Shown here one piece after another: positions 13,958 to 64,000 of a stretch of 64,000 nucleotides of DNA. Below the pieces are notes generated by a model, which saw nothing but the letters and a program-made list of their open reading frames with translations, made no database searches and was not told where the DNA came from. Made by a program: the position numbers and the translations under genes. The stretch comes from a virus (taxonomy: Duplodnaviria; Caudoviricetes), in IMG/VR virus record IMGVR_UViG_3300020577_006271, positions 1-64,000 of that record; one strand, 5' to 3'. Position 1 is the first letter of the stretch. Every line of letters begins with the position of its first letter.

Positions 13958-14149
13958 TTATGGTTTAAATATTATTTTATCTGTAAATTTAATCGCTCTT
14001 AAATTAAAATTGCGTATTACATCACGTGCTTCATTAGCGTCAATATTAATTGTCAAAACCTTGCCAGCCCAATTACTAATAACCATTTGGTATGCATACA
14101 TCCTGGGTTGATGTTCAATTCGTACAATATTAAGATTCATCATATTCAA
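13958..14149 (-). CDS. Hypothetical protein
   Basis: ORF track. Confidence 0.5.
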   Translation of the reverse strand: MNMMNLNIVRIEHQPRMYAYQMVISNWAGKVLTINIDANEARDVIRNFNLRAIKFTDKIIFKP

Positions 14150-14636
14150 CGATTGTTACTTCTGAATCCGTCAATTCGGTAGTAATTATTTGTAAAATTA
14201 TATTCCAATCACCCCTAGCTCGTCCAGATCCTATCTTAGGAAGACCAATGCGTCTGCCCGTGAATAAACGATTTATTTTCCGCAAGCAAAGGGTCAGCGC
14301 TTCATAATCTAATGGTATAGTCATGGATGTCGGCATATTTCTAGAATGCCAATATTGAGTATATGCATTAACAATAATTAATGGGGCTCCTGACCATTTA
14401 GATGAAACTCGGTATTCGATATTTCCAAGTTTTCCAATGAATCCTGCACTTGCTGGATTCTCCCCTGGATAATAAACCGGATTCGCGGTGTCGAAATGTT
14501 TAGCCATGTGTGGGGCTATTCCTGATCGTTGGGTGCAAAAACAATTACACCCATGCACAATTAAATCGAAATGACCATCAATTGCTAATTTAATCAGGTC
14601 GCCTTTAACGAATTTTATTTTGCCGGGTTGAATCAT
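14130..14636 (-). CDS. Macrodomain protein (ADP-ribose hydrolase/binding)
   Basis: GDL, IVHGCNCF, SGIA, NAYTQ, PKIGSG.A.GDW. Confidence 0.9.
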   Translation of the reverse strand: MIQPGKIKFVKGDLIKLAIDGHFDLIVHGCNCFCTQRSGIAPHMAKHFDTANPVYYPGENPASAGFIGKLGNIEYRVSSKWSGAPLIIVNAYTQYWHSRNMPTSMTIPLDYEALTLCLRKINRLFTGRRIGLPKIGSGRARGDWNIILQIITTELTDSEVTIVEYDES

Positions 14637-34605: not shown

Positions 34606-35079
34606 TTAAGGTTTTTTATATTGTATTCGGGGTGGATATATTTTTAGTGATTGACGCAATACGGGTGTTCCTCTTACTACATCACTTGTCCAAGGGTGAA
34701 CTTGCGCAGTATTTAAATTATAATTTGCAGCCAATTTTTTTGCCAAAAGTGTAACTTCTACACCAGTGTTTCCATTTGTGACGTCAATCCATTTACCTAA
34801 TGCATTTTTATATTCCTTCGGATAATAAATATGTATGGTAACAGAATCCCAAGAATCGAACTGTTCTCCATATTCAACAAATATGCTTTTCGCATAACTT
34901 TCGCCGTGTGCCTGAGTTAATTCCGCTTTGATATCTCTTAAATATAATTCAATCTTTTGTAATTCAGCTTTAATTCCCGCAAGTGATGCTTCATAATATC
35001 TAGAAAATCTATCAAAGATCTCATTGTTCACTTCATTAAAAGTTGCATTTTCGTTTAAAATATTTTTAAATTTAATCAT
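34606..35079 (-). CDS. Putative internal head protein, leader MIKFKNILNE
   Basis: Shared N-terminal leader. Confidence 0.7.
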   Translation of the reverse strand: MIKFKNILNENATFNEVNNEIFDRFSRYYEASLAGIKAELQKIELYLRDIKAELTQAHGESYAKSIFVEYGEQFDSWDSVTIHIYYPKEYKNALGKWIDVTNGNTGVEVTLLAKKLAANYNLNTAQVHPWTSDVVRGTPVLRQSLKIYPPRIQYKKP

Positions 35080-38393: not shown

Positions 38394-40403
38394 CTATAAA
38401 CGTTTGTATTGAATGTTATCAAAAAATGTTAATATGCCAGATAATTGAGTTACCCAATCCGAATCAGCTGTAAAAGTGTGAGTCACTGACCTAACCATAA
38501 AATATGATTTTGTGTCAAAATAATTTTGTGTCAGGTGGTTTGTAGCAATGGCATTTCCAATTGTGAATCCATAACAACCATCTAATGTCACATCTAATTC
38601 TAAACCTGGATAGGTTGGTAGATCATGTTGCTTTGAATGCGATGATGGTTTTGAAATTGTTAATGTGTTAACAGCAGATTGCAACGACGATTCTTTTTCT
38701 GGGTTAAACCTAGTTTCAATTAATTCCCCCGGAACTTTAATAAGTTTTAAGACATCCGTTTGAGCCTTATTAAATGCAATTGTTCTTTTTACGTCTATCT
38801 TAGCTAGTTTATCAGGTGTGATATTGTGGACCGGGTCGCCTTGTGAAGTTTGACCTGCCATCATTGCCGATGCCATTTCAGCAGACCCAGCATTAGATCT
38901 AAGATTAATTGATCTAGATGATCCATCTCCATCTATTCCGTTAAATACAATGCAATCTAATTTCTTAGCATATCCATTTCGTTGATCAACAATGACCAAA
39001 TAATCTGTTTTTTCAGGATGTTGTGTTAATGTTAAATTTATAGATCCACCGGATGCTTCTTTAATCGTTGTGAAAATTTTTGAAAGAAAAACCATAACAT
39101 TTATTGATTCGCCAGTTTTTGTTTTATCATTGATTTTGTCTGAGTTGGATTCTTCTTTTTTGGCTGCTTCATCTAAAGCATCTAATATAACAGAGCGTTC
39201 TAATATAATTTTTTTAAAATCAATAATATTTGACGGACCATTTGATCCTTCGACAGCCTTTATTGGCTCCAGACCTGCTCCGCCTACTTTTTCAAAATTG
39301 ATTCCGAGTTCATCTCCTACTGAATATGTTCCAGCATAATTTCCTTTGTTATTTCCTGCGAATACGCATTGCGTAGGTAATCCAGAAATAATTGCTTTAC
39401 TGATATAAGATTTAGAAAGAACTGGATCAAATACAATGGCGGTTGGTGAAAATTGTGCTGCCAATATAACATCATCTTTATATTTCATATGCGTATGGCC
39501 CATAATTAATCGGTTGACAATGTATTCTAACGTGTAATAGACAATATTTACCGATGAAGTAGTTGACGACGCACCTAAATAACCTTCTTGTATAGATTGC
39601 CAAGCTTTACCGACTCTACCGCTGAGATATGTTTTATGTGATGCCTTGTAAACTATAACAGCACCCGGTTTAGAACTAAATCCCTTTTCTGACAATGTAT
39701 ATGTATGATTTCTATCGGGAATGAAAGACACTCCATCATTACCAGACAAATTTATATCGTCGATTGCTTTTTGCCCATTTTGTTGGGCGTCGAAGGTCAT
39801 TAATTCTAATAACCCTTGAACATTTAGGGTTTCTCTGCCTGACAAATATGACAATCCATTAAATTTACCACCAACCAATGTCTCTAATTTCTTTAAAGCT
39901 TCTGTTGCTCTAACTGCAGAACCCTTAACAATGTAACATCCTTGGTCATCTGTGTTAAATTCAAATGTAACCAACAAGAATTTTTCAACCTTAATGTATT
40001 GTTGATCTACTATCCAATGCTTAGGATAACCAAACTCAGCTGAAATCTCAGTTCCATATCGACAAAAGACTTTCTCTATTTCCTTGAATGTTTCCCGATC
40101 AAAACATTTAATTGACCACGACAATCCTTCTTTAAACCCATATTCAGTGGGAGAATATGTAATTGTTGCTTCTTCAAGTGATGGATAAGGTTTAAATTTA
40201 TTGTATTGAGATTCTGGGAATGAATCAGATAATCTTACTCCTGGAACCGTTGCACTTCCACCTTCACCCTTTCCAGTCAATTTAAAGTAGGCTGGGTTTC
40301 TTGTTGCGGCTTTATAATGCGGACCGTTTTTAAAAAGGTCCAGGCGTTTTTGTAAGACTCCTAACGCACCATGAGTTGGATTATTTCTATAAACGTTTTC
40401 CAT
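38394..40403 (-). CDS. Putative baseplate hub protein
   Basis: C-terminal LDVTLDG..G..IG...V.SV.H.F...W.T.L pattern typical of gp27/VgrG-like hubs; position. Confidence 0.55.
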   Translation of the reverse strand: MENVYRNNPTHGALGVLQKRLDLFKNGPHYKAATRNPAYFKLTGKGEGGSATVPGVRLSDSFPESQYNKFKPYPSLEEATITYSPTEYGFKEGLSWSIKCFDRETFKEIEKVFCRYGTEISAEFGYPKHWIVDQQYIKVEKFLLVTFEFNTDDQGCYIVKGSAVRATEALKKLETLVGGKFNGLSYLSGRETLNVQGLLELMTFDAQQNGQKAIDDINLSGNDGVSFIPDRNHTYTLSEKGFSSKPGAVIVYKASHKTYLSGRVGKAWQSIQEGYLGASSTTSSVNIVYYTLEYIVNRLIMGHTHMKYKDDVILAAQFSPTAIVFDPVLSKSYISKAIISGLPTQCVFAGNNKGNYAGTYSVGDELGINFEKVGGAGLEPIKAVEGSNGPSNIIDFKKIILERSVILDALDEAAKKEESNSDKINDKTKTGESINVMVFLSKIFTTIKEASGGSINLTLTQHPEKTDYLVIVDQRNGYAKKLDCIVFNGIDGDGSSRSINLRSNAGSAEMASAMMAGQTSQGDPVHNITPDKLAKIDVKRTIAFNKAQTDVLKLIKVPGELIETRFNPEKESSLQSAVNTLTISKPSSHSKQHDLPTYPGLELDVTLDGCYGFTIGNAIATNHLTQNYFDTKSYFMVRSVTHTFTADSDWVTQLSGILTFFDNIQYKRL

Positions 40404-40873
40404 TATAGTGTGTTAAAATATTGTTCAAGTTCGTAATCAGTCTTAAAATATTTTATGTCTTTGGGCTTATAATGCACCATTTCTCTACCCTTAATAATAA
40501 CACCATCATAACCTTTTTTCATCATTTCATCTTCAATTGTAAATCCTTTCGCTTCAAAATTTCTAACATCCATTACTGATGAGTCCAATCCAAGAGCATC
40601 TTGTTTAAGTTTATGCCTATAAATTTCCCAACTATTCAAACCATCAAAAATTTTAGGGTTTTTAGGAATTGCATTTACAACAAAATACACATCACCATAT
40701 TGTTTGGCCATTGATTTATTTGATAGTGGAACAGTATATAATCCATTACCAATTGAACCATAAACTTGATTATCACTCCCCAAATTTTTTATACCTCGTA
40801 ACGTTACATTTTTTCGTTTCCAATTCTTAAAATCTGAAGTTGATTCTAAAATAATATCTTTAAATTTAATCAT
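40403..40873 (-). CDS. Leader-bearing protein with ADP-ribosyltransferase (ART-PolyVal-like) domain
   Basis: MIKFKDIILES leader; GNGLYT, AKQYG.VY.V, KNP, GYDGVII...E.V. Confidence 0.65.
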   Translation of the reverse strand: MIKFKDIILESTSDFKNWKRKNVTLRGIKNLGSDNQVYGSIGNGLYTVPLSNKSMAKQYGDVYFVVNAIPKNPKIFDGLNSWEIYRHKLKQDALGLDSSVMDVRNFEAKGFTIEDEMMKKGYDGVIIKGREMVHYKPKDIKYFKTDYELEQYFNTL

Positions 40874-40875
40874 AT

Positions 40876-41190
40876 CTAAGTCCTATCATTTGTTTCTTCC
40901 ATCACCAATTCCATCCTTTGAAATATTTCATTAGTTGGATCCGGTATTCTTAAATATATTCCTGGTCCTGGAATAAGATGTCCATTGACCAATGCATTGG
41001 CTTGTGCTATAACCCACCACAATGTCTGATCACCGTAGTATTTAAATGCTAAATTATCAAATCTATCCGATGATTTAGTCACTATAAAAATATCACGATC
41101 CGACTCTTCGAAACTAGGTAAATATTGACTGGCAAAAAATCTATCACCTGTCTCAGTCTTTAATATGTCAGAATTGATGTATCTTCTCAT
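40876..41190 (-). CDS. LysM-like baseplate wedge protein (gp53-like)
   Basis: DRFDNLAFKYYGDQTLWWVIAQAN...LRIP. Confidence 0.8.
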   Translation of the reverse strand: MRRYINSDILKTETGDRFFASQYLPSFEESDRDIFIVTKSSDRFDNLAFKYYGDQTLWWVIAQANALVNGHLIPGPGIYLRIPDPTNEIFQRMELVMEETNDRT

Positions 41191-41195
41191 TTAAT

Positions 41196-41747
41196 TTATT
41201 TGCCCGGGGTCATTTTACCGTCAGACTGATACTTTCCGGTATAATAATCACCTTTATTTTTATAATCTGGTTTCTTTGATCCTACAACTTGCAATGTCGC
41301 CGAACAGTTAATGTATATGGGCAAATTATCTATCCACGGTGTATCATTATTAATATCAATGGTAAATGATGTTAATATACCGTATTCATCGAGCAGCTTT
41401 CCAATTTTCATTTTAGTAAAAATTCCGTTAAATCCTCGCCCAGGTTTATAAATTGGTCTAGTTTGACGGGCTACATTATTTAATGCTTCCAAATAAAATG
41501 TATGCTCTCCATTATATAATGCTGCAGTAATGAAATTAACTGAAATTGTACGTTGGTATGAGTCATATTTCATTTTCGGATCTGCTCTACCTATATCCAT
41601 ATTCGATGACCATGATGGACTATGATTATCAGAAATACTGTGTATAAACGCAGGAAATTTGATAATAGGTCCCGGTCCTTCAGATGGTATGAATGCCTGA
41701 AAGGAAAATTCCGTTGGTATAGCTTCTGTCCGTAAGGTTGCCGCCAT
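41196..41747 (-). CDS. Baseplate / tube-initiator protein
   Basis: FPAFI.SISD.HS.SW...GRAD...Y..Y.R.IS..F. Confidence 0.6.
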   Translation of the reverse strand: MAATLRTEAIPTEFSFQAFIPSEGPGPIIKFPAFIHSISDNHSPSWSSNMDIGRADPKMKYDSYQRTISVNFITAALYNGEHTFYLEALNNVARQTRPIYKPGRGFNGIFTKMKIGKLLDEYGILTSFTIDINNDTPWIDNLPIYINCSATLQVVGSKKPDYKNKGDYYTGKYQSDGKMTPGK

Positions 41748-41989
41748 TAAATATTTTTATAAATCAATTTAAATTTTGGTAATGCCTTCTCCATCTCAGT
41801 AATTAGAAATCCTAAATTAACTGAATCTAATTTACCTGAATCCATAGCTTTTTTTGTAGTGACCATCGTTTTAAATAATGGTAACATTGTTTGCTGAGCC
41901 ATTCTAGTGCCATTCGAATTTTCATTCAATTTTTTACTAATTGCAGATTCAGTTAATTTAACTATTTGTTTGATTTGTTCTTTTGTCAT
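41747..41989 (-). CDS. Putative internal head protein, long leader
   Basis: MTKEQIKQIVKLTESAISKKLNE. Confidence 0.7.
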   Translation of the reverse strand: MTKEQIKQIVKLTESAISKKLNENSNGTRMAQQTMLPLFKTMVTTKKAMDSGKLDSVNLGFLITEMEKALPKFKLIYKNI

Positions 41990-42709: not shown

Positions 42710-42985
42710 TTATAAATGAGAAATCATTTTAATTTCATCTTCTAACGTATCGTGAAATCTATAATCCAATTTACTCATTTCTTGGTGTAATTCTCGGATT
42801 TTAGTATTGCCTGGGTTAGATTTTCGCATTTTACCTAATGTGATAGCCATATCTTCTATAGCAGTTTGTGCAAGTCTATGCGAATGCCTAAGTTGGTCTC
42901 CATCAGGTGAATTACCTTCATTCAATTTTTTATTAACGATTGTTTCCGTTAATTTAACTATTTGTTTGATCTGTTCTTTTGTCAT
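42710..42985 (-). CDS. Putative internal head protein, long leader
   Basis: MTKEQIKQIVKLTETIVNKKLNE. Confidence 0.7.
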   Translation of the reverse strand: MTKEQIKQIVKLTETIVNKKLNEGNSPDGDQLRHSHRLAQTAIEDMAITLGKMRKSNPGNTKIRELHQEMSKLDYRFHDTLEDEIKMISHL

Positions 42986-43012: not shown

Positions 43013-46000
43013 TTACCTATTATTAAACGCTTTTACTTTTTTGGCCAAAGCTGGAATTTGATCATTTCCAACCACTGCTGGAATTGGATTGTTTGCTACT
43101 TCGGACATAATAGCAACTAATTGTGCCAACAATTGTTCAGTCTTGTTAGACGTAGACGATTGACCCATATTGGTTGTATTGTTATAATTAGTTTCAGTTT
43201 TTGAATATTCTTTATCGCTGACCAATTGGGAAGATAAATTAGATACATTCGGTATATCTGGTTCAGACGTTGATGAAATGGTACTCAATTTATTTAACTT
43301 AGTATCATCCATTTCAACAGATGTAGCATTAAATTCTTTGATTGCTGCCACCAGCGCCGTGAATGACGATGCCAACAACGCTATCCCTGGGGCTGCTGAC
43401 GCCAATTGAGTCAGTTTAGTAATTGGATCACCAGTTAATAAAGTCATCATTGAACCTACTGCACCCATACCAGTAAATGCTGTGAATGCCATTGATATTG
43501 CACCAAGTCCTGTGGCAATTCCAATTAATTGGGTTGGATTAATGTCTTTCAATCTTGTTATAGAATTTATAATTCCATCAGTAACTTCGGATAATTGACC
43601 TATACCAAAAGCTGCTACGGTTAATCCTGCACCAAATACTGTTAACGATGCTCCTAAGGCTGTTATAGCAATTGATCCAGATAATATTAAAGGTAATATT
43701 GCACCCATACCAGCTGCAACAACTCCAAACCCAACTAATGCTGCTGCACCTTTACCCAATGAATCCCATTTAACGTTATTGAACATATTCAACGCATACG
43801 CAAGTGGAATCATAGCTAAACCTAAAATTGCCATGGCAGCAGAACCAATTAACATTTGTGGTGCTGCAGTGCCTAATAACATAGCAATACCTGCTAAACC
43901 GGTAAGTGATATCAACCCTTTGGCAACAGATTCCCATTCAACTGAATTAAATTCTTGTAATGCTTTTGATGTAACCCATAATGCGCCAGATATTATTAGC
44001 AATGAAGCAGCGCCAATTGCTGCTTTGGGTGTAAATTTATTTAATCCATCTGCAATGCCACCAAGAATTGATTTAAACACATCTCCTATTCCTGCCCCAA
44101 TTTTTTTAATTGGCTCAATAATTGAATCAGCTAAACCGTTCGTGAATTCTTTTAATGAATCCATTCCAGATTTAATTTTTTCTTGCAAAGATTTAGATGG
44201 CCCAGAAGATTCAGTAGATGTTTCTGATGTAGATGTAAATCGTTCAATTAATTTATCTTTTTGTTCCTTAATTTTGTCCATCACAGTAGAAGAAGCACTT
44301 TCGGTAGTTGAATTGGTGACTGTTGACGTAATTGTTGATGCGATATCAGTACCTTTACCAAATAGACTTCCCATTCCAGTTAATTTTCTGGCCATGTTCA
44401 CCATACCTTTCATCATGGACATTGGAGCTGTGAAAATGCCTGAGACTAATGATCTAATTTTTGACCATTGTGAAATCATCAAACCGCCGAGCAATAAAAA
44501 CGATCCGCCTATCTTAACCCACTCTCCCATACCATCGCCAATACTTTCACCTTTAGTTATCCATCCGTCTAAGATTTGCATCCATTCGGATAACTTAGTT
44601 GATGCTAAACCTATTAACCAAGATATACTTTTCAAAGCTGGTATAAATGGTTTAATTGCCAATCCAATTAATTTAAAACCTAAACCTATAATATCAATTA
44701 CCGGTGCTAAGGCAACTAATATATCCGAAACAACTTCTACTATTGGAAGGAAAGATCGCGTCAGTGTGGCGGTTATACGAGCCCAGGCCATATCCATTGC
44801 TTCTGTGGCTGCGAATTGTTTTGCTTTGGCTTCAAGGTCAGATTTAGTCATACCTGTGATGTCTCCCATTGTATCGAGTTGACTGTTTAATGCCGATTGT
44901 TCCGCTTCTGTCAATGATAAATTCATTTCAGACATTTTAAGCATATTTTTCATTTCACCGACGGTCATACCAATTGTCTCTGCAATTTTCTTTTGGGCTT
45001 GCGGTGAATAGTTATTCAACTCGTCTAGTGATCCAAGTGCTGACAATAGTGATTCTTGAAAAGCTTCAGCGTCTCCATTTATACCAGCATCAAAGACCCC
45101 AGATAAATTAATTTCCGATCCAGTTAATTGAGCCACTTCATACATATCAGTCATGAAATTTTCAATATTCCATGTTGATTGCATTTGTTCTCCAACTTTT
45201 TTAATGTTGGATCCCATCCTTCGTATATTAATGGCAGCTAAAGCCGCTCGTTCTGGCATATTACCAAAGTACATCGAAATTTCTTCAGCGCCATCTATTA
45301 AATCTTTAGCTATTATTTTTGGAGATATTTTAGCTAATTCGGCTGCTTTTAATGTAGATGCAGCTAAATTATTAGCTAATCCGTCATCAGCTCCAATTTG
45401 TTTAAACAATTCAATCATCGATGCTGCTTCGTCTGCAGCAATACCATATGCAGAAGACATTAATGAACTGTATTCAACTAACTCTTTACCTTCTTTGGAT
45501 GTCAAATCAACCAATCTACCATATTTTTCTAGATGGGCAGTTTGGATTTGCATTATACGTTCCTGAGTTACTGCTATATTTCCAGCAGCACCTTCCATTT
45601 TTAACATGGCATCGTATAATTTAAATGCTTCTCCCTTTGATACACCTAATTCAGTTGATATATCCTTCACGCGACCCATTACGTTATACACGGCAACGGC
45701 CGCTAAAGCAAAACCTGCAGCCATCAATTTGATTGGACTAATTGTACCCAATAATCCGCCAGTAAAATCTTTAACATAACCTGAAATAGCGTCGAAGAAA
45801 CTTGATGGGTTTTCCTTATTAAACAACTTTTCAGTCATTGAATTAAAGGCTTTATCCGACGATATCGTTATCGTATCTAGTATTTTATCAGTGCCTATCA
45901 AACTTTGTGTCCACAATGGTAATGATGTCAACGCATCCTTTAATTGATCAGTCATATGCTCTTGAGCACCTTTGATCGATTGAATAGTCGATCTATATTT

Positions 46001-47335
46001 GGTCATAACATCTAATTCAGCTTTAGATAGTTTAATTTGTTTATTTTGCATGGCCAGAGTTGCCATAGCTGAACTATGAATATGGAAGAGCAATTGTTCT
46101 TTTTCACTAAGTGTTTTAATTTCAGCTTCTGCAGCATGTACGTGATCATTTAGATAATCTAACCTATCCTTGTCAGTTAATAATAAATTATCTGTAAGCA
46201 TGCCCATTTCAATATGGCTTGCAATTAAATCATTGGCAAATTTTAATTTGGATTGTTCTAATTTAATCTGATCCTTACCGTCCCGTATAATCATAGCGTT
46301 ATGTTCAGCCATTAAATTATACATGTCTTGCATTCTTTGAGAATTGGCTAATATTGCATCTTGAGTTTCTGGAGTTACTGGAAGACCATTAGATGTCATA
46401 GATGTATTACCGGAAGAATCTGGTTGCATTGAGAAACCACCAATTGCCATGATACCTGCTAAAATATTATCTTTAATGTCCATGACTCTGTCTTCAATAG
46501 TTGACAGCTCAGTATTAAACCTATTAGACATTAAGGTTGCTGCATCATTAAAATTTAACCCAACTTCTCCAGCTAAGTCTATGCTATCCGAATTTAAATT
46601 TGATTTAAGTTTATTAAATTCTGAGATTGCGTCATCGGCAGACATGGCAGGAATATCCATAACAGACAGCATATCTGTATATTTCGATGCCGTAATAATT
46701 AAATTATCTATAGAATCTTTAGATGCATTAATATTAACCCCAATGATATCTTGATATATACCCTGTTTCTTATATTCGGCTGACAACTTTTCCAGCTGTT
46801 TATGAAATAAGGCAAGATTGCCGAGTGTATCGTCAATAATATCTGCATTATCAGTTAAATGTTGAGTAACTGAATCTAAATCAGTGTTTAATAAATCTGC
46901 TTGTTTTTGAGTAGCTGTAATTAACTTGGTAATCTTAATATAATCATCGTCATTATCTAACTCAACTTGCATTTTGTTATTTTGAATGACATCTTTTAAT
47001 AACAGTTTCTCAAGTTCCTGTACATCCGATCCTGATTTTAATGCTTTATTTTTGTTTAAAATCCGAATAATATCTTTAGCATTGGTGTCATTAAGTAAAG
47101 ATATATCCTTAAATATTTTTTCCAAAGAATACCCAGACGATTTAAAATCCACGAAGCCATGTTGCATTGATTTAAGTACCGAAGCGAAGTTTTTCGTTTG
47201 AGTATCTAAACCACTCTTAACCGCATTTAAAAACTCCTTGGTATTAGAACCATCAGATTTCATTAAGCGCTTGATTACCGATCGTAATTGCTCAATGTCA
47301 GATTCAGTTAAATTGGTTTTTTGTTTTTCTGCCAT
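43013..47335 (-). CDS. Tape measure protein
   Basis: 1440 aa, helical, Ala/Gly-rich hydrophobic repeats, follows chaperone genes. Confidence 0.85.
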   Translation of the reverse strand: MAEKQKTNLTESDIEQLRSVIKRLMKSDGSNTKEFLNAVKSGLDTQTKNFASVLKSMQHGFVDFKSSGYSLEKIFKDISLLNDTNAKDIIRILNKNKALKSGSDVQELEKLLLKDVIQNNKMQVELDNDDDYIKITKLITATQKQADLLNTDLDSVTQHLTDNADIIDDTLGNLALFHKQLEKLSAEYKKQGIYQDIIGVNINASKDSIDNLIITASKYTDMLSVMDIPAMSADDAISEFNKLKSNLNSDSIDLAGEVGLNFNDAATLMSNRFNTELSTIEDRVMDIKDNILAGIMAIGGFSMQPDSSGNTSMTSNGLPVTPETQDAILANSQRMQDMYNLMAEHNAMIIRDGKDQIKLEQSKLKFANDLIASHIEMGMLTDNLLLTDKDRLDYLNDHVHAAEAEIKTLSEKEQLLFHIHSSAMATLAMQNKQIKLSKAELDVMTKYRSTIQSIKGAQEHMTDQLKDALTSLPLWTQSLIGTDKILDTITISSDKAFNSMTEKLFNKENPSSFFDAISGYVKDFTGGLLGTISPIKLMAAGFALAAVAVYNVMGRVKDISTELGVSKGEAFKLYDAMLKMEGAAGNIAVTQERIMQIQTAHLEKYGRLVDLTSKEGKELVEYSSLMSSAYGIAADEAASMIELFKQIGADDGLANNLAASTLKAAELAKISPKIIAKDLIDGAEEISMYFGNMPERAALAAINIRRMGSNIKKVGEQMQSTWNIENFMTDMYEVAQLTGSEINLSGVFDAGINGDAEAFQESLLSALGSLDELNNYSPQAQKKIAETIGMTVGEMKNMLKMSEMNLSLTEAEQSALNSQLDTMGDITGMTKSDLEAKAKQFAATEAMDMAWARITATLTRSFLPIVEVVSDILVALAPVIDIIGLGFKLIGLAIKPFIPALKSISWLIGLASTKLSEWMQILDGWITKGESIGDGMGEWVKIGGSFLLLGGLMISQWSKIRSLVSGIFTAPMSMMKGMVNMARKLTGMGSLFGKGTDIASTITSTVTNSTTESASSTVMDKIKEQKDKLIERFTSTSETSTESSGPSKSLQEKIKSGMDSLKEFTNGLADSIIEPIKKIGAGIGDVFKSILGGIADGLNKFTPKAAIGAASLLIISGALWVTSKALQEFNSVEWESVAKGLISLTGLAGIAMLLGTAAPQMLIGSAAMAILGLAMIPLAYALNMFNNVKWDSLGKGAAALVGFGVVAAGMGAILPLILSGSIAITALGASLTVFGAGLTVAAFGIGQLSEVTDGIINSITRLKDINPTQLIGIATGLGAISMAFTAFTGMGAVGSMMTLLTGDPITKLTQLASAAPGIALLASSFTALVAAIKEFNATSVEMDDTKLNKLSTISSTSEPDIPNVSNLSSQLVSDKEYSKTETNYNNTTNMGQSSTSNKTEQLLAQLVAIMSEVANNPIPAVVGNDQIPALAKKVKAFNNR

Positions 47336-48447: not shown

Positions 48448-48681
48448 TTATTTTCGTATTTCTTTTTTGTATGTTATATTAACTCTACCTTTGCACATAG
48501 GAGAATCTGGATATGCTTTACAATACCAAGACATATTGTCTTCTAATTGCTTAATATCCTGTTGTACTTTTTTAAATTCTCCTTCTAATCCAGGATCGGT
48601 TACTTTTATGGATGCTGCTATTTTTCCCATTTCAGCTGACATGCGTCTGGATATTAGCATTTTTATTAGTGATCCTATCAT
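48448..48681 (-). CDS. Hypothetical protein
   Basis: ATGA overlap. Confidence 0.55.
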   Translation of the reverse strand: MIGSLIKMLISRRMSAEMGKIAASIKVTDPGLEGEFKKVQQDIKQLEDNMSWYCKAYPDSPMCKGRVNITYKKEIRK

Positions 48682-48905
48682 GATTTATTATAGGTATTTC
48701 GAATTGAACGGAATTCACTGATGTCACTTAATGCTTCACTTAAATTATCCATCAGGATACTGTATTTTTCCTTAAGATCCGTTTCAATGTGCAACGCTTT
48801 CATTTTTTTCAAACTTGTCCAAATATCAGTTTCGACATCGTTTAATTGTTTATCGATTTCGTCTGTCATGTAAGACTCGAAAAGTATGTCTTTAAATTTT
48901 ACCAT
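48678..48905 (-). CDS. Putative internal head protein, leader MVKFKDILFES
   Basis: Shared leader. Confidence 0.7.
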   Translation of the reverse strand: MVKFKDILFESYMTDEIDKQLNDVETDIWTSLKKMKALHIETDLKEKYSILMDNLSEALSDISEFRSIRNTYNKS

Positions 48906-52070: not shown

Positions 52071-52904
52071 TCAAGATAGGTCATCGGATAGCATGGTTGG
52101 AGTTATTTTTAATCCAGGCGGCCCAATGATTTTTGGTCTAGGCATGTAATCAACAGCAAAGTCTGGTTCGCCCCATTCATTTGTGAAATCAACTCGCTTG
52201 ATGGTATATGCTTTCTGAACATCTGCTTGGTTTGCTGTAAATTCATTTCTTAGCATACCATGAACCGTTAACGGTACCGTAGCTTTAATGACTCGGTCTT
52301 CACCTGAGTTATTTATTTGTTCGAATTGAAACTCTCCCACATCCGTCGAAAATTGAAAATTATCTCCCCAAAGGCTTTGATCATACGTTAATACCTGTTC
52401 AACAATTGTATTTAATTGACTCTGTTGGTGCGTCCATATCATTAATTCGTAGTTAACTATGACAGTGGTAGGTATGACCGAAATCAAATATTCATATGAT
52501 TCATTGGTATTATCAGTGCGAGATAAATTGTTGAACTTATCCGCTTTATTTTTTGGTGGTAAATATAATAATTTACCAGCAACATCCGAAAATTGAAACA
52601 TTTCATCTTCTAATAATGAAATGCGTTTAATAACAATTAATGGCGCCATTAATTTATTGTCAGAAGTTCTTAATAACGCTCCATATTTTTGTATTTGTGC
52701 CCACTTTTCTCCGGCGGCCATTATGACTGGGACTTCTATCATTTCATTATCGGATTCAATCCGAAGTTTCATACCATTTTGTAATTGCCAAAGAATAGCA
52801 TAATCAATATCGTAGATAGTGATGGCAGGAATTAACTTACTATCACTATTTTCATCTTTCCTGATTAAAGACTTGTTGATATCTTTGGATTCTCTGAATT
52901 GCAT
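52071..52904 (-). CDS. Tail terminator / sheath stabiliser (gp15-like)
   Basis: VPVI....EKW, P.I.IKR, Y.L.IWT....Q.N.IVEQ; position. Confidence 0.65.
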   Translation of the reverse strand: MQFRESKDINKSLIRKDENSDSKLIPAITIYDIDYAILWQLQNGMKLRIESDNEMIEVPVIMAAGEKWAQIQKYGALLRTSDNKLMAPLIVIKRISLLEDEMFQFSDVAGKLLYLPPKNKADKFNNLSRTDNTNESYEYLISVIPTTVIVNYELMIWTHQQSQLNTIVEQVLTYDQSLWGDNFQFSTDVGEFQFEQINNSGEDRVIKATVPLTVHGMLRNEFTANQADVQKAYTIKRVDFTNEWGEPDFAVDYMPRPKIIGPPGLKITPTMLSDDLS

Positions 52905-53188
52905 TATAATACGGTTCCGCCGCTAATGTCGTCAAGTATGCCGATTGCTTTTCTGAAATCCCAATAAGAATGCCTTGTCGATTTGTCCCAATCGGCTATG
53001 TCATATTGTCTCATTATTTCCAAAATTTTATCTATATATGGAGCCATCTTCTTAATCGAGCGTTGTATAATTCGAGTATCTTCAGGAGTCCAGCCTTCAA
53101 GAGTTTTTTTAGTTGAAGATTCGTTCAATTTTTTATTAACGATTGATTCAGTTAATTTTACTATTTTCTTAATTTGATCTCTTGTCAT
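52904..53188 (-). CDS. Putative internal head protein, long leader
   Basis: MTRDQIKKIVKLTESIVNKKLNES. Confidence 0.7.
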   Translation of the reverse strand: MTRDQIKKIVKLTESIVNKKLNESSTKKTLEGWTPEDTRIIQRSIKKMAPYIDKILEIMRQYDIADWDKSTRHSYWDFRKAIGILDDISGGTVL

Positions 53189-53189
53189 A

Positions 53190-53528
53190 TCATTTATCCT
53201 TATTTTTTATGCCCTTCTTCAAGGAGCGAATTACCCAACGTAAAGTTTCAATGATATCATAATCGTCAAACTTTAATTTTTCTGAATGAAATTTATTTCC
53301 GTCGAGTGGTTCGGTATATTTAATGGTAATATCTGTTTTACCAATTGTTATTGGCTTAAACTCATAAACAGATTCCCATGTACCATTCGGTTCAATTGCA
53401 TACCATTCATCTTTAATGGATTGATCAATCAACGTGTTTGCTTCGTCAACCAATTTTTTAACTTGGAACGGTATATTAGTTCCTCCAGTAGCTTCGTTTA
53501 ATTGAAATATGTCTTTAAATTTTATCAT
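53190..53528 (-). CDS. Putative internal head protein
   Basis: MIKFKDIFQLNEA. Confidence 0.7.
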   Translation of the reverse strand: MIKFKDIFQLNEATGGTNIPFQVKKLVDEANTLIDQSIKDEWYAIEPNGTWESVYEFKPITIGKTDITIKYTEPLDGNKFHSEKLKFDDYDIIETLRWVIRSLKKGIKNKDK

Positions 53529-53540
53529 TTTAATCCTTAT

Positions 53541-53747
53541 TTATCGTATCCTAGGTTCAATATAATCTAACGCTTCAAGGGCATCGCGTTTAGTATATAT
53601 TTGACGTCCAGTTTTTTCTTGAGCTAAATTAATTAATTTTTGCAGGGCCACTTTATATTCAGTTCCCGCTTTCCTTTTTTGCATAATTGATAGCAAATTA
53701 TCAATTTCTGAATTAGACTCATTTAATATATCTTTAAATTTTATCAT
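53541..53747 (-). CDS. Putative internal head protein
   Basis: MIKFKDILNES. Confidence 0.7.
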   Translation of the reverse strand: MIKFKDILNESNSEIDNLLSIMQKRKAGTEYKVALQKLINLAQEKTGRQIYTKRDALEALDYIEPRIR

Positions 53748-53793
53748 TATATTGCTGCCTTTATTGATGAAAGAAATCTTGTTTTAAATAATT

Positions 53794-54192
53794 CTACAAT
53801 TTGGTTTGTCTAATTATTGAATCGGGTATTATTAATCTAGGAAATTCTTTCCTATCAAACCATTTAAAATTTAAATTGAATTTGGTATTTAATAGGTTTT
53901 CAATCGGTTCTATAAATGATTCTAAATCATTAGGTATATTTCTACGATTGATAAAATATATTTCTACCGCATTCCATGCATCTTTAGTTGCGTAAACTTT
54001 ATAATCACCAGCGGATGTAATTTTTCGTTGAGTTTTACCATCGGTTCCTCTGATTATAGTTGGGGCCGCCCTTTCTATATAACCCCCTTTTAAATCAGTC
54101 GTTGACATATATTTTTCAATCAACCTTTTAATTTGTTGTTGAACTCGAATCACATCATTTGATTCTAATAATATATCTTTAAATTTTATCAT
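53794..54192 (-). CDS. Putative internal head protein
   Basis: MIKFKDILLES. Confidence 0.7.
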   Translation of the reverse strand: MIKFKDILLESNDVIRVQQQIKRLIEKYMSTTDLKGGYIERAAPTIIRGTDGKTQRKITSAGDYKVYATKDAWNAVEIYFINRRNIPNDLESFIEPIENLLNTKFNLNFKWFDRKEFPRLIIPDSIIRQTKL

Positions 54193-54204: not shown

Positions 54205-55299
54205 TTATACTGCTGCGCTCAATGCTGTTAAAAATCGGGTTTTGAATAATTCAGATATTTGGCCTGTCTTTTGTAATTCGTTTGCCAATTGACTTATTTG
54301 ATCTGCTGTGCCATTGGGGTTGGCTTTCTTTGCCTGGTATAAAAATTGCTTGGCCATTCCTGCAAACGAATTACCTAGAAATTCAATCATATCTAATTTC
54401 CAAGCTGGATCAACACCTTGTACAACTGGTGCTGCTGGTGCAGGTGCTGTTACTGGTGCAGGTGCTGCTAATGGAGCTTCATTTATTTTTTTTGATTCTG
54501 TTAGATTTCTTCCGTTGATAGATATAATATCCAGATCGCTTGATTTTTTATCATCCCATTTACCTTGGTTAGTTAATATGTATTCTTGTTTATGAAAAGA
54601 TGATTTTAATCCACGTTGATTCATATCACGCACACTATACTCTTCTTCAACATATATCGAACGTATTGGGTTAGTATGGTCAAGTTTAACAACCTTTAAT
54701 ACATCTCCATTTCTAATAGTAACGCTGTCACCAACCTTTAGTTTTTTTGATATGTCGATTTTTTTAGATTCATTTACCGTATAAGTTTGCCTAAAACCAT
54801 TTTTATCCATCGGATGACCTAAGGTAACTTCATCAGTTTCTCCATCATCAGATTTTAGAAATAACTCCTGATATGATCCGTAATTTTTAAAATCGGTTAC
54901 CTTGAATTTCTTTTTATCCAATTTACGATAAACGAATGTGTTTTTCCAGCCGCCATCAACAGATTCACCTAAATTAGGATTGAACACATCTGAACCTGGA
55001 TGATATTTATCAATTAACCTGTCAATTATTTGTTCAAGTTTAACGCCAGCAGATTTTGCATCCGTTCTAAGTTGACCTAATATTAATTTGAAATTATTTT
55101 GATCTATTGTTCCAGCTCTTTTTGCCGATGCTAATTGATTGATGAAATTTTTCTGGGTCATCGTTCCAGATATTACATCTCCGATTGCAAAGATTGCTTC
55201 TCTTTTATTTTGGAATGGTGCAACTGTTGATTCATTCAATTTTTTATTGATTGTCGTCTCAACTAATCTAACAATTTCTCTTAAACTATTTTTATTCAT
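54205..55299 (-). CDS. Putative internal head polyprotein
   Basis: Start MNKNSLREIVRLVETTINKKLNES at 55299; internal LGES, VNES, LTES, INEA. Confidence 0.65.
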   Translation of the reverse strand: MNKNSLREIVRLVETTINKKLNESTVAPFQNKREAIFAIGDVISGTMTQKNFINQLASAKRAGTIDQNNFKLILGQLRTDAKSAGVKLEQIIDRLIDKYHPGSDVFNPNLGESVDGGWKNTFVYRKLDKKKFKVTDFKNYGSYQELFLKSDDGETDEVTLGHPMDKNGFRQTYTVNESKKIDISKKLKVGDSVTIRNGDVLKVVKLDHTNPIRSIYVEEEYSVRDMNQRGLKSSFHKQEYILTNQGKWDDKKSSDLDIISINGRNLTESKKINEAPLAAPAPVTAPAPAAPVVQGVDPAWKLDMIEFLGNSFAGMAKQFLYQAKKANPNGTADQISQLANELQKTGQISELFKTRFLTALSAAV

Positions 55300-55400
55300 T
55301 TTATTTTCCTTTAATGTTTTAAATTGCAATTTACCTGCTACAAAATCGCCATTTTCTTTTTTAAAATAATGATGCCATTCACCAGGATCATTTTCCTGAG

Positions 55401-55574
55401 TCAAACATCTAACAAATCCATTACTGACATATACACATTCTTCGGGTTATCTCCAACTAATATGTCAAAGGCATTATTAGTATCAATACCTTTTTCAGCT
55501 AAATAATCTTCTATTTCAGAAAATTGAATTTTATTTATATTAGTTCCCCGGATGTTATATTGTTGACTTTTCAT
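55401..55574 (-). CDS. 57-aa ORF (MKSQQYNIRG...), possibly frameshifted
   Basis: ATGA overlap with neck gene stop; translated by hand. Confidence 0.4.
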   Translation of the reverse strand: MKSQQYNIRGTNINKIQFSEIEDYLAEKGIDTNNAFDILVGDNPKNVYMSVMDLLDV

Positions 55575-62613: not shown

Positions 62614-64000
62614 TTAAATTGTATTAACACCTTCAATAAAGATCTTTCCATAAAATTCAGGTCGTAACATTTTCTTAGCGTATCTAGTAGATATCGCCTT
62701 TCTTGGCACGAAGTTAATTGGATCCAAAATGGTTGGTGTTGTCATCAATGGAATATAAGGACTGTAAACAGCTCCACATTCTAAGTATGATCCACCTCTG
62801 TAACCCATTAAGATTGAATTTTCAGTCATATACGGAACTTTGTAAACATCCCATCTATTAGAAATTGTACCTACTGCGCTTGGTCCCATTCCAAATTTAC
62901 CCTTAGTTCCATCAGTTGATGCTGCGTAACCTGGAATAGATTCAAGAATAGTTGCAATAGTAGGAGAAACCACCATGAAATTGGCACCGTCAGACATTGT
63001 CAATCTTCCGATTTCATTACTCATTTTTTGAATAGTTGTACCTAATGTTTGGAACCAACTTCCCTGTGTATATGCTGCAACATTACTTGGTGTTTGCACA
63101 AAACTGTTACTAGCTTTATCATATGCAAATCCTAATCTAGCAGACCAGTGACCTGTAGATTGTGCGTTATTGTACAACATGTCTATCAATTCTAAATCGA
63201 TTTCTTTAGTAATATAATCACCAAGCAATGCAGTCATTTCTGCTTCAACATCAATTGAATGGTAAGCGTTAATGTCTTGTTCAAATTCTGTAGTCCATAC
63301 CGCTTTCAATTTTCTAGTCACCGCACTAATTGATTCAGATTTAAGTGACAAGTCTAAAGTTGGAATATCCAACGGAGCATTAGCTGGTAAGTTTGCCTCG
63401 AAGTCACCTCTTGTGATGTCAGTAGTTTCTTTATGATATGAAACGATTACTGCAGCAGCTGCGGCAAATGTTATTGCTGTTTGAGAATCTTCAAGTAACG
63501 CAATCCAATGTATATTCGTTCTGTCGGCATTAGTTCTAGTATATCCCGCCAAATGTGCTTTAATCTGAGTTCCAGCGGTATCAGTGACTGTAAATCCTCT
63601 GACTCCATGTAAATCCGGACTGGTTAATGCCGAAACCGGAGTTGTGAATTTTACTACTCTTCCTGCTGCTATTGCGTCAGTCAGTACTGCAATCCTTTCA
63701 CTGTCGAAATTCAAGTCTGCAGGTGCTGTTGCTGGAGTTACTGCTGTTATGGTTGCTGCGACTGTATTGGCAGACACGTCATTAAGTGTATATCCAAATC
63801 TACCTGGACCATATAAACCACCGGTTGCTACTTCCGCTCCGCGTCTGGCATCAGTGACACCATATAAAGAGTCTTCTTGTGAGCCTTGCTGTGACCCAGT
63901 TGTAAATCCAGGTTGTCCACTTGCGTATTTATGGTCATACCAGAATACCAATCCAGTTGGCATTGACATACTTTGTGTTGACAAGAAATCTTTTGCTGAT
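62614..64000 (-). CDS. Major capsid protein (T4 gp23-like), 5' truncated by window
   Basis: Q.M..PTGLVF, TRKLKA.WT.E..QD..A.H.ID.EAE, GA.Y.PYIPL, PRKAI.TRY. Confidence 0.95.
   Translation of the reverse strand, partial: SAKDFLSTQSMSMPTGLVFWYDHKYASGQPGFTTGSQQGSQEDSLYGVTDARRGAEVATGGLYGPGRFGYTLNDVSANTVAATITAVTPATAPADLNFDSERIAVLTDAIAAGRVVKFTTPVSALTSPDLHGVRGFTVTDTAGTQIKAHLAGYTRTNADRTNIHWIALLEDSQTAITFAAAAAVIVSYHKETTDITRGDFEANLPANAPLDIPTLDLSLKSESISAVTRKLKAVWTTEFEQDINAYHSIDVEAEMTALLGDYITKEIDLELIDMLYNNAQSTGHWSARLGFAYDKASNSFVQTPSNVAAYTQGSWFQTLGTTIQKMSNEIGRLTMSDGANFMVVSPTIATILESIPGYAASTDGTKGKFGMGPSAVGTISNRWDVYKVPYMTENSILMGYRGGSYLECGAVYSPYIPLMTTPTILDPINFVPRKAISTRYAKKMLRPEFYGKIFIEGVNTI

Follow-up and report, generated by a model that had tools for sequence, protein, structure and literature searches.

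Positions 40403-40873 of a 64,000-nucleotide stretch of a tailed-virus genome (Duplodnaviria; Caudoviricetes; IMG/VR record IMGVR_UViG_3300020577_006271) encode on the minus strand a small protein with a predicted ADP-ribosyltransferase (ART) fold preceded by a ten-residue N-terminal leader. The stretch, termed the window below, is part of the 162,683-bp genome that was analysed. The reading that we favour, with a probability of about 0.55, is that the protein is a minimal injected ART of an as yet unmodelled sister family of ART-PolyVal (PF18760), which would be targeted to the prohead by its leader, cleaved, and would modify a host target. According to this mechanism the gene would be transcribed and translated late, within a tape-measure/baseplate-hub block, and the leader MIKFKDIILE would take the ART into the prohead scaffolding core, where a gp21-type protease would remove it after I-L-E10. 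The remaining basic enzyme of ~17 kDa would stay in the head, enter the cell with the DNA and use NAD+ to ADP-ribosylate a host target, leading to takeover of the cell or disabling of a defence, an action like that of T4 Alt or AcrIF11 though by a different family. Of these steps, packaging, cleavage, injection and the use of NAD are inferred by us, as is the target.

The open reading frame (ORF) comprises 156 codons and a stop (18.1 kDa, isoelectric point (pI) 9.2), and the plus-strand frame is full of stops. The leader occupies 40844..40873 (minus strand), with F4, I7, I8 and E10 as its prominent residues and a predicted cut after E10, and the predicted mature ART-fold domain, residues 11-156, occupies 40406..40843 (minus strand; 16.9 kDa, pI 9.2). 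The protein starts MIKFKDIILES and contains TLRG at residues 24-27, GNGLYT at 42-47, AKQYGDVYFV at 56-65, KNP at 71-73 and GYDGVIIKGREMV at 121-133. All of these motifs had been quoted in a previous inspection of the DNA (the sequence-only reading), and they prove to be the invariant columns of the family; the ORF is as it was described there, its strand being corrected to minus. Since many homologous clusters exist, the gene is not a chance ORF.

The AlphaFold2 model of the protein, built on a 42-sequence alignment, has a mean predicted local distance difference test score (pLDDT) of 88.2 and a predicted template modelling (TM) score of 0.78. Values of pLDDT below 50 are confined to residues 1-6, with means of 47 for residues 1-10 and 85 for residues 11-20. 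The model displays the split β-sheet core of ARTs with helices placed after strand 4 and ahead of the final three strands. When compared with the PDB by Foldseek, it retrieves AcrIF11 (6KYF) first (E 6.9e-4), and then SAIP, exotoxin A, tankyrases, MbcT and diphtheria toxin. Similarly VIA, a fold search independent of Foldseek that covers 48,161 chains, retrieves diphtheria toxin (Z 6.2, root-mean-square deviation 3.4, 96 aa), SAIP (Z 5.8) and MbcT (Z 5.0) together with diphtheria toxin homologues, plant and human PARP domains, ParT, RES toxins, Arr and AcrIF11, ~33 of the 42 VIA matches listed being ART-superfamily entries. In BFVD, the Foldseek matches are proteins named 'ART-PolyVal' or 'PolyVal ADP-ribosyltransferase' (E 1e-6 to 1e-3). 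As modelled, the protein thus has an ADP-ribosyltransferase-superfamily fold, and the ART fold proposed by the sequence-only reading stands up to the fold search, which returns almost only structures of that superfamily. Alt/VIP2/C3-type ARTs are absent from the Foldseek-PDB, VIA and BFVD matches listed, which does not exclude that family. A separate observation concerns the top VIA match, chain B of the cyanophage A4 pre-ejectosome (PDB 9k3a; Z 6.3, 131 aa), which also ranks second by Foldseek, is aligned over a very wide range (631-1603) and has a BFVD counterpart in A5HL40 (Pf-WMP3 gp26). The paper describing the pre-ejectosome mentions no ART-like domain (PMC12002296), and this podovirus ejection protein may harbour an unannotated ART-like module or may represent an alignment artefact.

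The putative active site is strongly conserved. In an alignment of 101 diverse copies of the domain, W18, R26, G27, G42, G44, Y46, G60, P70, G121, D123, G124, E131 and P137 are kept in every copy, and Y59 and R130 in 99 copies each, a conservation pattern that points to an active enzyme and not to a pseudo-enzyme. The strand order consists of a strand carrying the Arg (or His), a strand carrying the Tyr, a helix followed by the second Tyr, two strands, a helical insert, a further strand, the strand that starts with the Glu and a last strand. R26 (40796..40798), located in TLRG at the end of strand 1, stands where H-Y-E/D ARTs have their NAD-binding His; R26-G27 thereby corresponds to ART motif I, which closes strand 1 with [HR]-G-x, and pairs with the H-G of PF18760. 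Y46 (40736..40738) in GNGLYT of strand 2, in the strand 45-48 that is followed by helix 53-57, represents ART motif II and aligns with the strand-2 Tyr of ART-PolyVal. Y59 (40697..40699), in AKQYG past the helix that follows strand 2, would be the second Tyr of an H-Y-Y-E-type site. D123 (40505..40507), in GYDG, equals the invariant GYDG Asp of ART-PolyVal, and E131 (40481..40483), in GREMV at the front edge of its strand, is the candidate catalytic Glu; the codons of all five residues lie on the minus strand. E131 opens strand 131-134 and would map to E148 of diphtheria toxin by strand order and by the aligned ranges (model 20-146 with diphtheria toxin 15-165). From the residues conserved, the active-site set appears best written as R-Y-(Y)-E/D, which combines elements of two classical sets, R-S-E and H-Y-E.

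The relation to ART-PolyVal emerges at the profile-profile level. An hhalign comparison of the diverse 101-copy alignment with 12 PF18760 domains taken from proteins of the profile search gave 94.6% probability and E 6.9e-8 over 107-133 aligned columns, while an earlier comparison made with the low-diversity A1 alignment (Neff 1.9) had covered only 32 C-terminal columns at 63% probability. The alignment pairs R26 with the His, Y46 and Y59 with Tyr residues, KNP with KNP and GYDG with GYDG. The two families are homologous at this level and their motifs are co-linear, VVYHGT of PF18760 corresponding to VTLRGI, G-x-G-F-Y-F-T to G-x-G-L-Y-T, A-x-x-Y to A-K-x-Y, KNP to KNP, GYDGV to GYDGV and x-E-Y-h-h-F-x-P-x-Q-I-K to R-E-M-V-x-Y-x-P-x-x-I-K. 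ART-PolyVal clusters are also among the nearest in a feature search of the ESM Atlas (score 0.93, 14 of 30 hits). In contrast, the PF18760 hidden Markov model (HMM; gathering score 31.2 bits) finds no match in the protein at E<=10, reaches even E 0.1 in only one of 42 homologs, and in a scan of the whole genome matches only a paralog at 86725-87060. ART-PolyVal is defined by a His in strand 1, a Tyr in strand 2 and an Asp in strand 5 (Iyer et al. 2017, PMC5512222), and the present family has an invariant Arg for the His while retaining the Tyr and the GYDG Asp, R-Y-(Y)-E/D thus replacing H-Y-D. It further differs from ART-PolyVal in that the loop joining the GYDG strand to its successor is shortened to K-G-R and that this successor strand opens with an invariant Glu. 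Because of the His-to-Arg replacement and the failure of the HMM, the protein is assigned to a sister family of ART-PolyVal (Tox-ART-HYD2 clade) and not to ART-PolyVal itself, so that, of the ART-PolyVal-like pattern noted in the sequence-only reading, the resemblance holds and membership does not. The two families are alike in being restricted to viruses and mobile elements, in occurring in polyvalent proteins, often adjacent in tandem, and in bearing the same leader in two phages.

The protein founds a large, viral and so far unannotated family. At the 90% identity level, 317 homologous clusters (85-273 aa, E<=0.01) were collected, none with a functional name or a Pfam domain, and a profile search of 1.84 billion 50%-identity representatives returned 171 clusters, of which 117 reach E<=1e-30. 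With the single sequence, Pfam (E<=10), PHROGs and the PDB (phmmer) yielded no meaningful match, and the A1 profile gave only noise against PDB sequences; weak matches to Pfam HTS in 10 of 42 family members (best E 0.0011) were likewise taken as noise. The family extends to jumbo or mega phages, stand-alone homologs being present on IMG/VR contigs of 420-676 kb (L014, L024, L027 and L029; maximum 675,678 bp), where they have leaders of their own, such as MLKYIDFINE.

The domain is also embedded in many multidomain representatives of 250-5166 aa and is therein an effector module with polyvalent-protein architecture. Polyvalent proteins have been read as effectors delivered with the invading DNA, their ART part being modelled on T4 Alt (Iyer et al., PMC5512222). 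Across 82 multidomain representatives the Pfam partners are ART-PolyVal (14), NUDIX (6), GNAT (3), DUF5661 (3) and CCA/poly(A) polymerase (2), with topoisomerase IB, cREC_REC, Zeta toxin and NT5C as single cases, and the five longest proteins also hold RadC and 2H phosphoesterase. NUDIX lies directly upstream of the ART domain in P0130, P0135 and P0138; no NUDIX partner was found in the 162,683-bp genome. Canonical ART-PolyVal often stands immediately beside the family domain, which in P0166 is flanked by it on both sides. Some of these proteins (P0166, P0144) have up to three ART-type domains of the two families in tandem, and the canonical PF18760 copies are preceded by a conserved linker, 'APNG.PSNLT..Q...VRTPEFKAWFGDW'.

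Fusion of the domain to NUDIX, CCA-adding enzyme, 2H phosphoesterase and cREC_REC (cyclic-phosphate processing) leaves open a nucleic-acid or NAD-metabolite substrate, and with it the alternative that the protein, whether or not it is packaged, is an ART-fold enzyme that uses NAD+ and has a substrate other than a host protein. Such an enzyme could act on DNA or RNA ends (DarT-like), take part in RNA repair through a Tpt1-like 2'-phosphotransfer, or break down NAD+ by hydrolysis or phosphorolysis (RES/MbcT-like). MbcT, RES toxins, ParT and Arr do figure among the structural neighbours besides protein ARTs, and the many invariant basic residues (K19, R20, R26, K71 and R130) and the pI of 9.2 would suit a nucleic acid or a phosphate as substrate. 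The best structural matches, in contrast, are protein ARTs (AcrIF11 and the diphtheria-toxin group), and the closest family, ART-PolyVal of the Tox-ART-HYD2 clade, is grouped with protein-modifying ARTs (Iyer et al., PMC5512222). Adjacency in polyvalent proteins, which mix unrelated activities, is weak evidence of a substrate, and depletion of NAD would hurt the phage's own replication. Overall, a non-protein substrate is considered rather unlikely.

The second line of evidence comes from the leader. A six-frame translation of the genome contains the pattern KFK[DN]I 13 times, of which 12 are directly after an initiator Met. The twelve genes concerned start M[IV]KFK[DN]I, nine of them with [IL]-x-E at residues 8-10 and the other three with it at residue 12 or 13. 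Their bodies are unrelated, Pfam recognising only one and no common family, and the designation of the sequence as a leader tag, made on this single gene, is thereby upheld. In the window the same leader is found, always on the minus strand, at 34606..35079 (MIKFKNILNE, with an unrelated body), at 48678..48905 (MVKFKDILFE) and on three tandem genes (53190-53528, 53541-53747 and 53794-54192; span 53190..54192). The tagged gene at 86725-87060 encodes a canonical PF18760 ART-PolyVal (E 2e-11, above the cut-off). This second tagged ART (L006:725-1060, minus strand, 111 aa), located outside the window, reads MIKFKDILRE and then YIVYHGT...GFWFTDN, and directly upstream of it, at 87053-89114, are three further genes of the MIKFKDI type. 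A longer class of leader, MTKEQIKQIVKLTE..KKLNE, is present in three further genes; in its general form, MT[KR][ED]QIK.IVKLTE..KKLNE, it heads the small genes at 41747-41989, 42710-42985 and 52904-53188, and a segment like '..IV[KR]..E..I.KKLNE' is found near the N-terminus of a 399-aa ORF (54205-55404). The genome thus holds 15 tagged genes, 12 with the short and three with the long leader, two of them being ARTs.

The leader co-varies with the phage. MIKFKDILFE, MIKIKDLIQE and MVKFKDILTE head the homolog and two further genes in a close relative (L002). In a different phage (L003) the homolog begins with MKDSRKLLVTIARGYLNE and its neighbour with MKDSRKLLATIAKGYLSE, and at a distance of 6 kb a canonical PF18760 protein begins with MKDLRKFLSTTAKQYLNE; many residues of the leader common to them, MKD.RK.L.T.A..YL.E, differ, and the amphipathic pattern and the terminal L-x-E are kept. 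Leader sharing, scored when another ORF within ±10 kb had at least 7 of 11 leader residues, was observed in 8 of the 33 IMG/VR loci with stand-alone homologs, compared with 0.03 expected from shuffled leaders; only ±10 kb being visible, the count is a lower bound. Those eight loci include three further leader types. Within the N-terminal extension, [LIVMF]-x-E is present in 133 of 142 stand-alone homologs (85.5±5.4 after shuffling, maximum 100), and its Glu is most often positioned exactly 7 residues before the invariant Trp.

The properties of the leader recall those of the internal head proteins of T4, which reach the scaffolding core through a capsid-targeting sequence (CTS) at the N-terminus (PMC9026906, PMC8442874, PMC5694885). 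The tag of T4 internal protein (IP) IPIII consists of ten residues, MKTYQEFIAE, with targeting governed mainly by residues 4 and 7 and processing by residues 8 and 10 (PMC9026906, PMC8442874), and gp21 cuts after Glu, the head-packaged Alt losing its propeptide at ITE-6 (PMC9026906, PMC8442874, PMC5694885). MIKFKDIILE matches the T4 CTS at all four determinant positions, through F4, I7, I8 and E10. The cognate protease is also encoded, a gp21-type Peptidase_S77 (PF03420) being located at genome positions 70669-71172 (E 2e-35; phrog_207, E 2e-54) in a head module with the T4 order: TerL, portal, a 272-aa ORF, the protease, a 358-aa ORF at the scaffold position and a gp23-like major capsid protein (62614-63984). 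Both ORFs are enriched in [LI]-x-E, with 10 occurrences in the 358-aa ORF (4.6±1.8 expected) and 12 in the 272-aa ORF (5.8±2.1 expected), z being about 2.9 for both, and the 358-aa ORF (L008:5481-6557) has an internal '..LIERIVKRVIAKKLNE' segment resembling the long leader. Among five related leader-sharing records, Peptidase_S77 is present in three, including the only complete record, and the two negative records are 47% and 59% complete. By analogy with T4, the leader is most likely a capsid-targeting sequence, which would direct the protein to the head and not mark it as baseplate cargo. In the records from which L039 and L066 come, Peptidase_S77 matches in two parts, with profile positions 33-97 and 97-189 lying ~1.1 kb apart in one 616-aa frame (G003:C1:25261-26904 and G004:C1:77554-79197), an arrangement implying that a large insertion interrupts the prohead protease domain.

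The gene lies in a tightly packed late operon, at the baseplate position assigned to it by the sequence-only reading. It starts 2 nt past the stop of an upstream gene for a 104-aa LysM-like baseplate protein (40876..41190, minus strand; phrog_7145 'baseplate wedge subunit', E 6.6e-10), and its stop overlaps the ATG of a downstream gene for a 669-aa protein (38394..40403, minus strand) in TAATG, the two being translationally coupled. PHROG and Pfam searches with the 669-aa protein gave no match. Its structural relatives in a search of the Atlas are viral proteins of ~950-990 aa (TM-score by query 0.62-0.67) that carry Amidase_2, lysozyme, Hydrolase_2, DUF2272 or DUF5675 domains, and this hub/spike candidate is likely, judging from its modelled structure, a gp5/gp27-type hub-spike devoid of the lysin module. 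The late tail/baseplate block is headed by a tape-measure-like protein of 1440 aa (43013..47335, minus strand), which is followed in order of transcription by two long-leader genes with small ORFs, a 183-aa ORF, the LysM-like gene, the ART gene and the 669-aa gene; sheath, tube and one hub protein lie upstream. The same order is kept in the close relative L002. The genes of the Alt family adjoin baseplate genes in T4-like phages owing to late expression (PMC5512222), an explanation that matches the position of the present gene.

This setting bears on two further alternatives. The shared N-terminus might not be a head-targeting signal but a signal for loading into the tail tube or baseplate, as in extracellular contractile injection systems, or the 5' edge of a cassette serving translation control or recombination, in which latter case the enzyme could act inside the infected cell without injection. 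The location between the LysM-like and the hub/spike-like genes, coupled to the latter, favours such a role, as do the high conservation of the leaders at the DNA level and the possibility that L-x-E is intrinsic to the domain. Nevertheless, the leader-bearing genes are spread over four regions of the genome and most are far from the tail genes. At the nucleotide level these genes are alike from the ATG itself onwards and differ upstream of it, and the leader codons vary synonymously (ATT/ATA, TTT/TTC, GAT/GAC and AAA/AAG), a sign of selection on the peptide. The retention of the amphipathic pattern and of the terminal L-x-E in the divergent leaders of L003, the match at the four CTS positions, the presence of a gp21-type protease and the long-leader-like segment and [LI]-x-E enrichment of the putative scaffold also argue for the head, and a leader of another kind is accordingly viewed as unlikely. 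It is very improbable that the protein, non-catalytic and with a residual ART-like fold, serves in the structure or assembly of the baseplate, although its position between baseplate genes is kept in this genome and in L002 and pseudo-ART domains do exist, TASOR and PARP13 being among the VIA matches. All 101 diverse copies retain the putative catalytic residues, and the domain is embedded in polyvalent effectors beside enzymatic domains. In more distant phages, moreover, the ART homolog lies among small non-structural genes and not in a tail operon. The baseplate-protein reading was rejected on the last two grounds, and, since the tail order is not kept, the operon position reflects the timing of expression and not a structural role.

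The absence of the tail setting in distant phages is at the same time one of several observations that weigh against an injected, head-packaged ART. The structural scores are middling (Z 5-6.3, TM-score 0.4-0.6), and a Z below 8 may mean a shared arrangement only, so that the case for an ART is carried by the consistency of the hit lists and by the profile-profile match. Neither the single protein nor the A1 profile reaches any annotated ART by sequence search, and tblastn found no homolog in 50,697 GenBank phage records. At the active site, only the strand order and the aligned ranges suggest that E131 corresponds to the Glu that is catalytic in diphtheria toxin and PARP, and the equally invariant D123 may be an alternative or auxiliary catalytic acid. 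To our knowledge, an R-Y-E triad falls outside the three classical ART configurations. As for the leader, 51 of the 58 embedded copies also have [LIVMF]-x-E at a distance of 7-11 residues upstream of the Trp (23.8±3.5 after shuffling), and L-x-E may thus belong to the first helix of the domain instead of marking a cleavage site.

The occurrence of L-x-E in embedded copies may alternatively mean that the small multidomain proteins are polyproteins cut at domain borders. On this is built a wider and more tentative proposal, that tagged singletons and polyvalent proteins are interchangeable delivery formats of one pool of injected effectors, that in the T4-like phages of this group the [LI]-x-E preceding the domain by 7-11 residues in proteins of 2-3 domains (e.g. 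NUDIX-ART) is a gp21-type prohead-protease site, and that R-Y-E is a new catalytic configuration with its own target. One precursor would then be cut inside the head into several free enzymes, and the target would possibly be a defence protein or a nucleic acid. L-x-E is weak or displaced in the largest polyvalent proteins. A role of L-x-E as a generic boundary of polyvalent proteins was considered and dropped, embedded canonical PF18760 copies having it in 4 of 13 cases against 5.7 expected.

Set against known systems, the injected ART proposed here would follow the predicted logic of T4 Alt, with which it has in common a late gene adjoining baseplate genes, a predicted short N-terminal propeptide ending in [IL]-x-E, an encoded gp21-type protease, a predicted delivery with the DNA and an Arg in strand 1. 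In contrast to Alt, ModA and ModB (Alt/VIP2, R-S-E-2 clade), it lacks S-T-S and E-x-E, its strand 2 reads L-Y-T and its catalytic strand is preceded by G-R and not by E/Q-x. With 156 aa it is about one quarter of the size of Alt (mature Alt, 68 kDa), and packaging, which is demonstrated for T4 Alt, is here predicted. AcrIF11 (PDB 6KYF), a mini-ART of phages and plasmids with a diphtheria-toxin-like core that ADP-ribosylates Csy1, resembles the protein in its similar size (132-137 aa), its mobile-element origin and its minimal core, as reflected by its rank as best Foldseek match in the PDB. The key residues of AcrIF11 are H-F-H-D as against R-Y-Y-E, the two proteins share no sequence similarity, and AcrIF11 is not known as a virion-packaged protein. 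The internal T4 proteins IPI, IPII and IPIII offer the closest parallel for the tag, which in both phages is a ten-residue N-terminal sequence common to unrelated bodies, with aromatic or hydrophobic residues at positions 4 and 7, Ile at position 8 and Glu at position 10, in a genome encoding a gp21-type protease. The tag sequence itself differs, and the set described here is larger (12 short and three long), is scattered over the genome and includes several putative cargoes with recognisable enzymatic folds.

If the proposal is correct, a widespread ART family absent from Pfam, with an unusual invariant R-Y-Y-E site, would be added to the enzymes by which phages modify their hosts. With the short leader as a simple sequence rule, the injected proteome of an uncultured group of large phages could be listed, the tagged genes being the likeliest place for new anti-defence and take-over functions. 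The polyvalent-protein domains described by Aravind would also be tied to the capsid-targeting mechanism of T4, suggesting a route for their delivery to the host. As a small basic enzyme of a deeply sampled family, the protein is a tractable candidate for biochemistry.

Two further genes deserve mention. At 14130..14636 (minus strand), 26 kb from the ART gene, the window encodes a 168-aa protein in which the sequence-only reading had seen a macrodomain. The product has no Pfam match at E<=0.01 and matches over its full length 2fg1 (Bacteroides BT1257; E 4.6e-7), 2afc and 5e3b ('Macrodomain protein', E 4.7e-4), and it is reasonable to regard it as a divergent macro-like protein, an identity that agrees with the one given to it; its suggested part as an 'eraser' of the ART is speculation. 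As far as sequence and structure analysis reach, the interpretation of the ART gene itself by the sequence-only reading is supported. Lastly, in the different phage L003, an IS605-type OrfB/TnpB (Cas12f-like TNB) gene is located at L003:4348-5634, ~4.4 kb upstream of the ART homolog.

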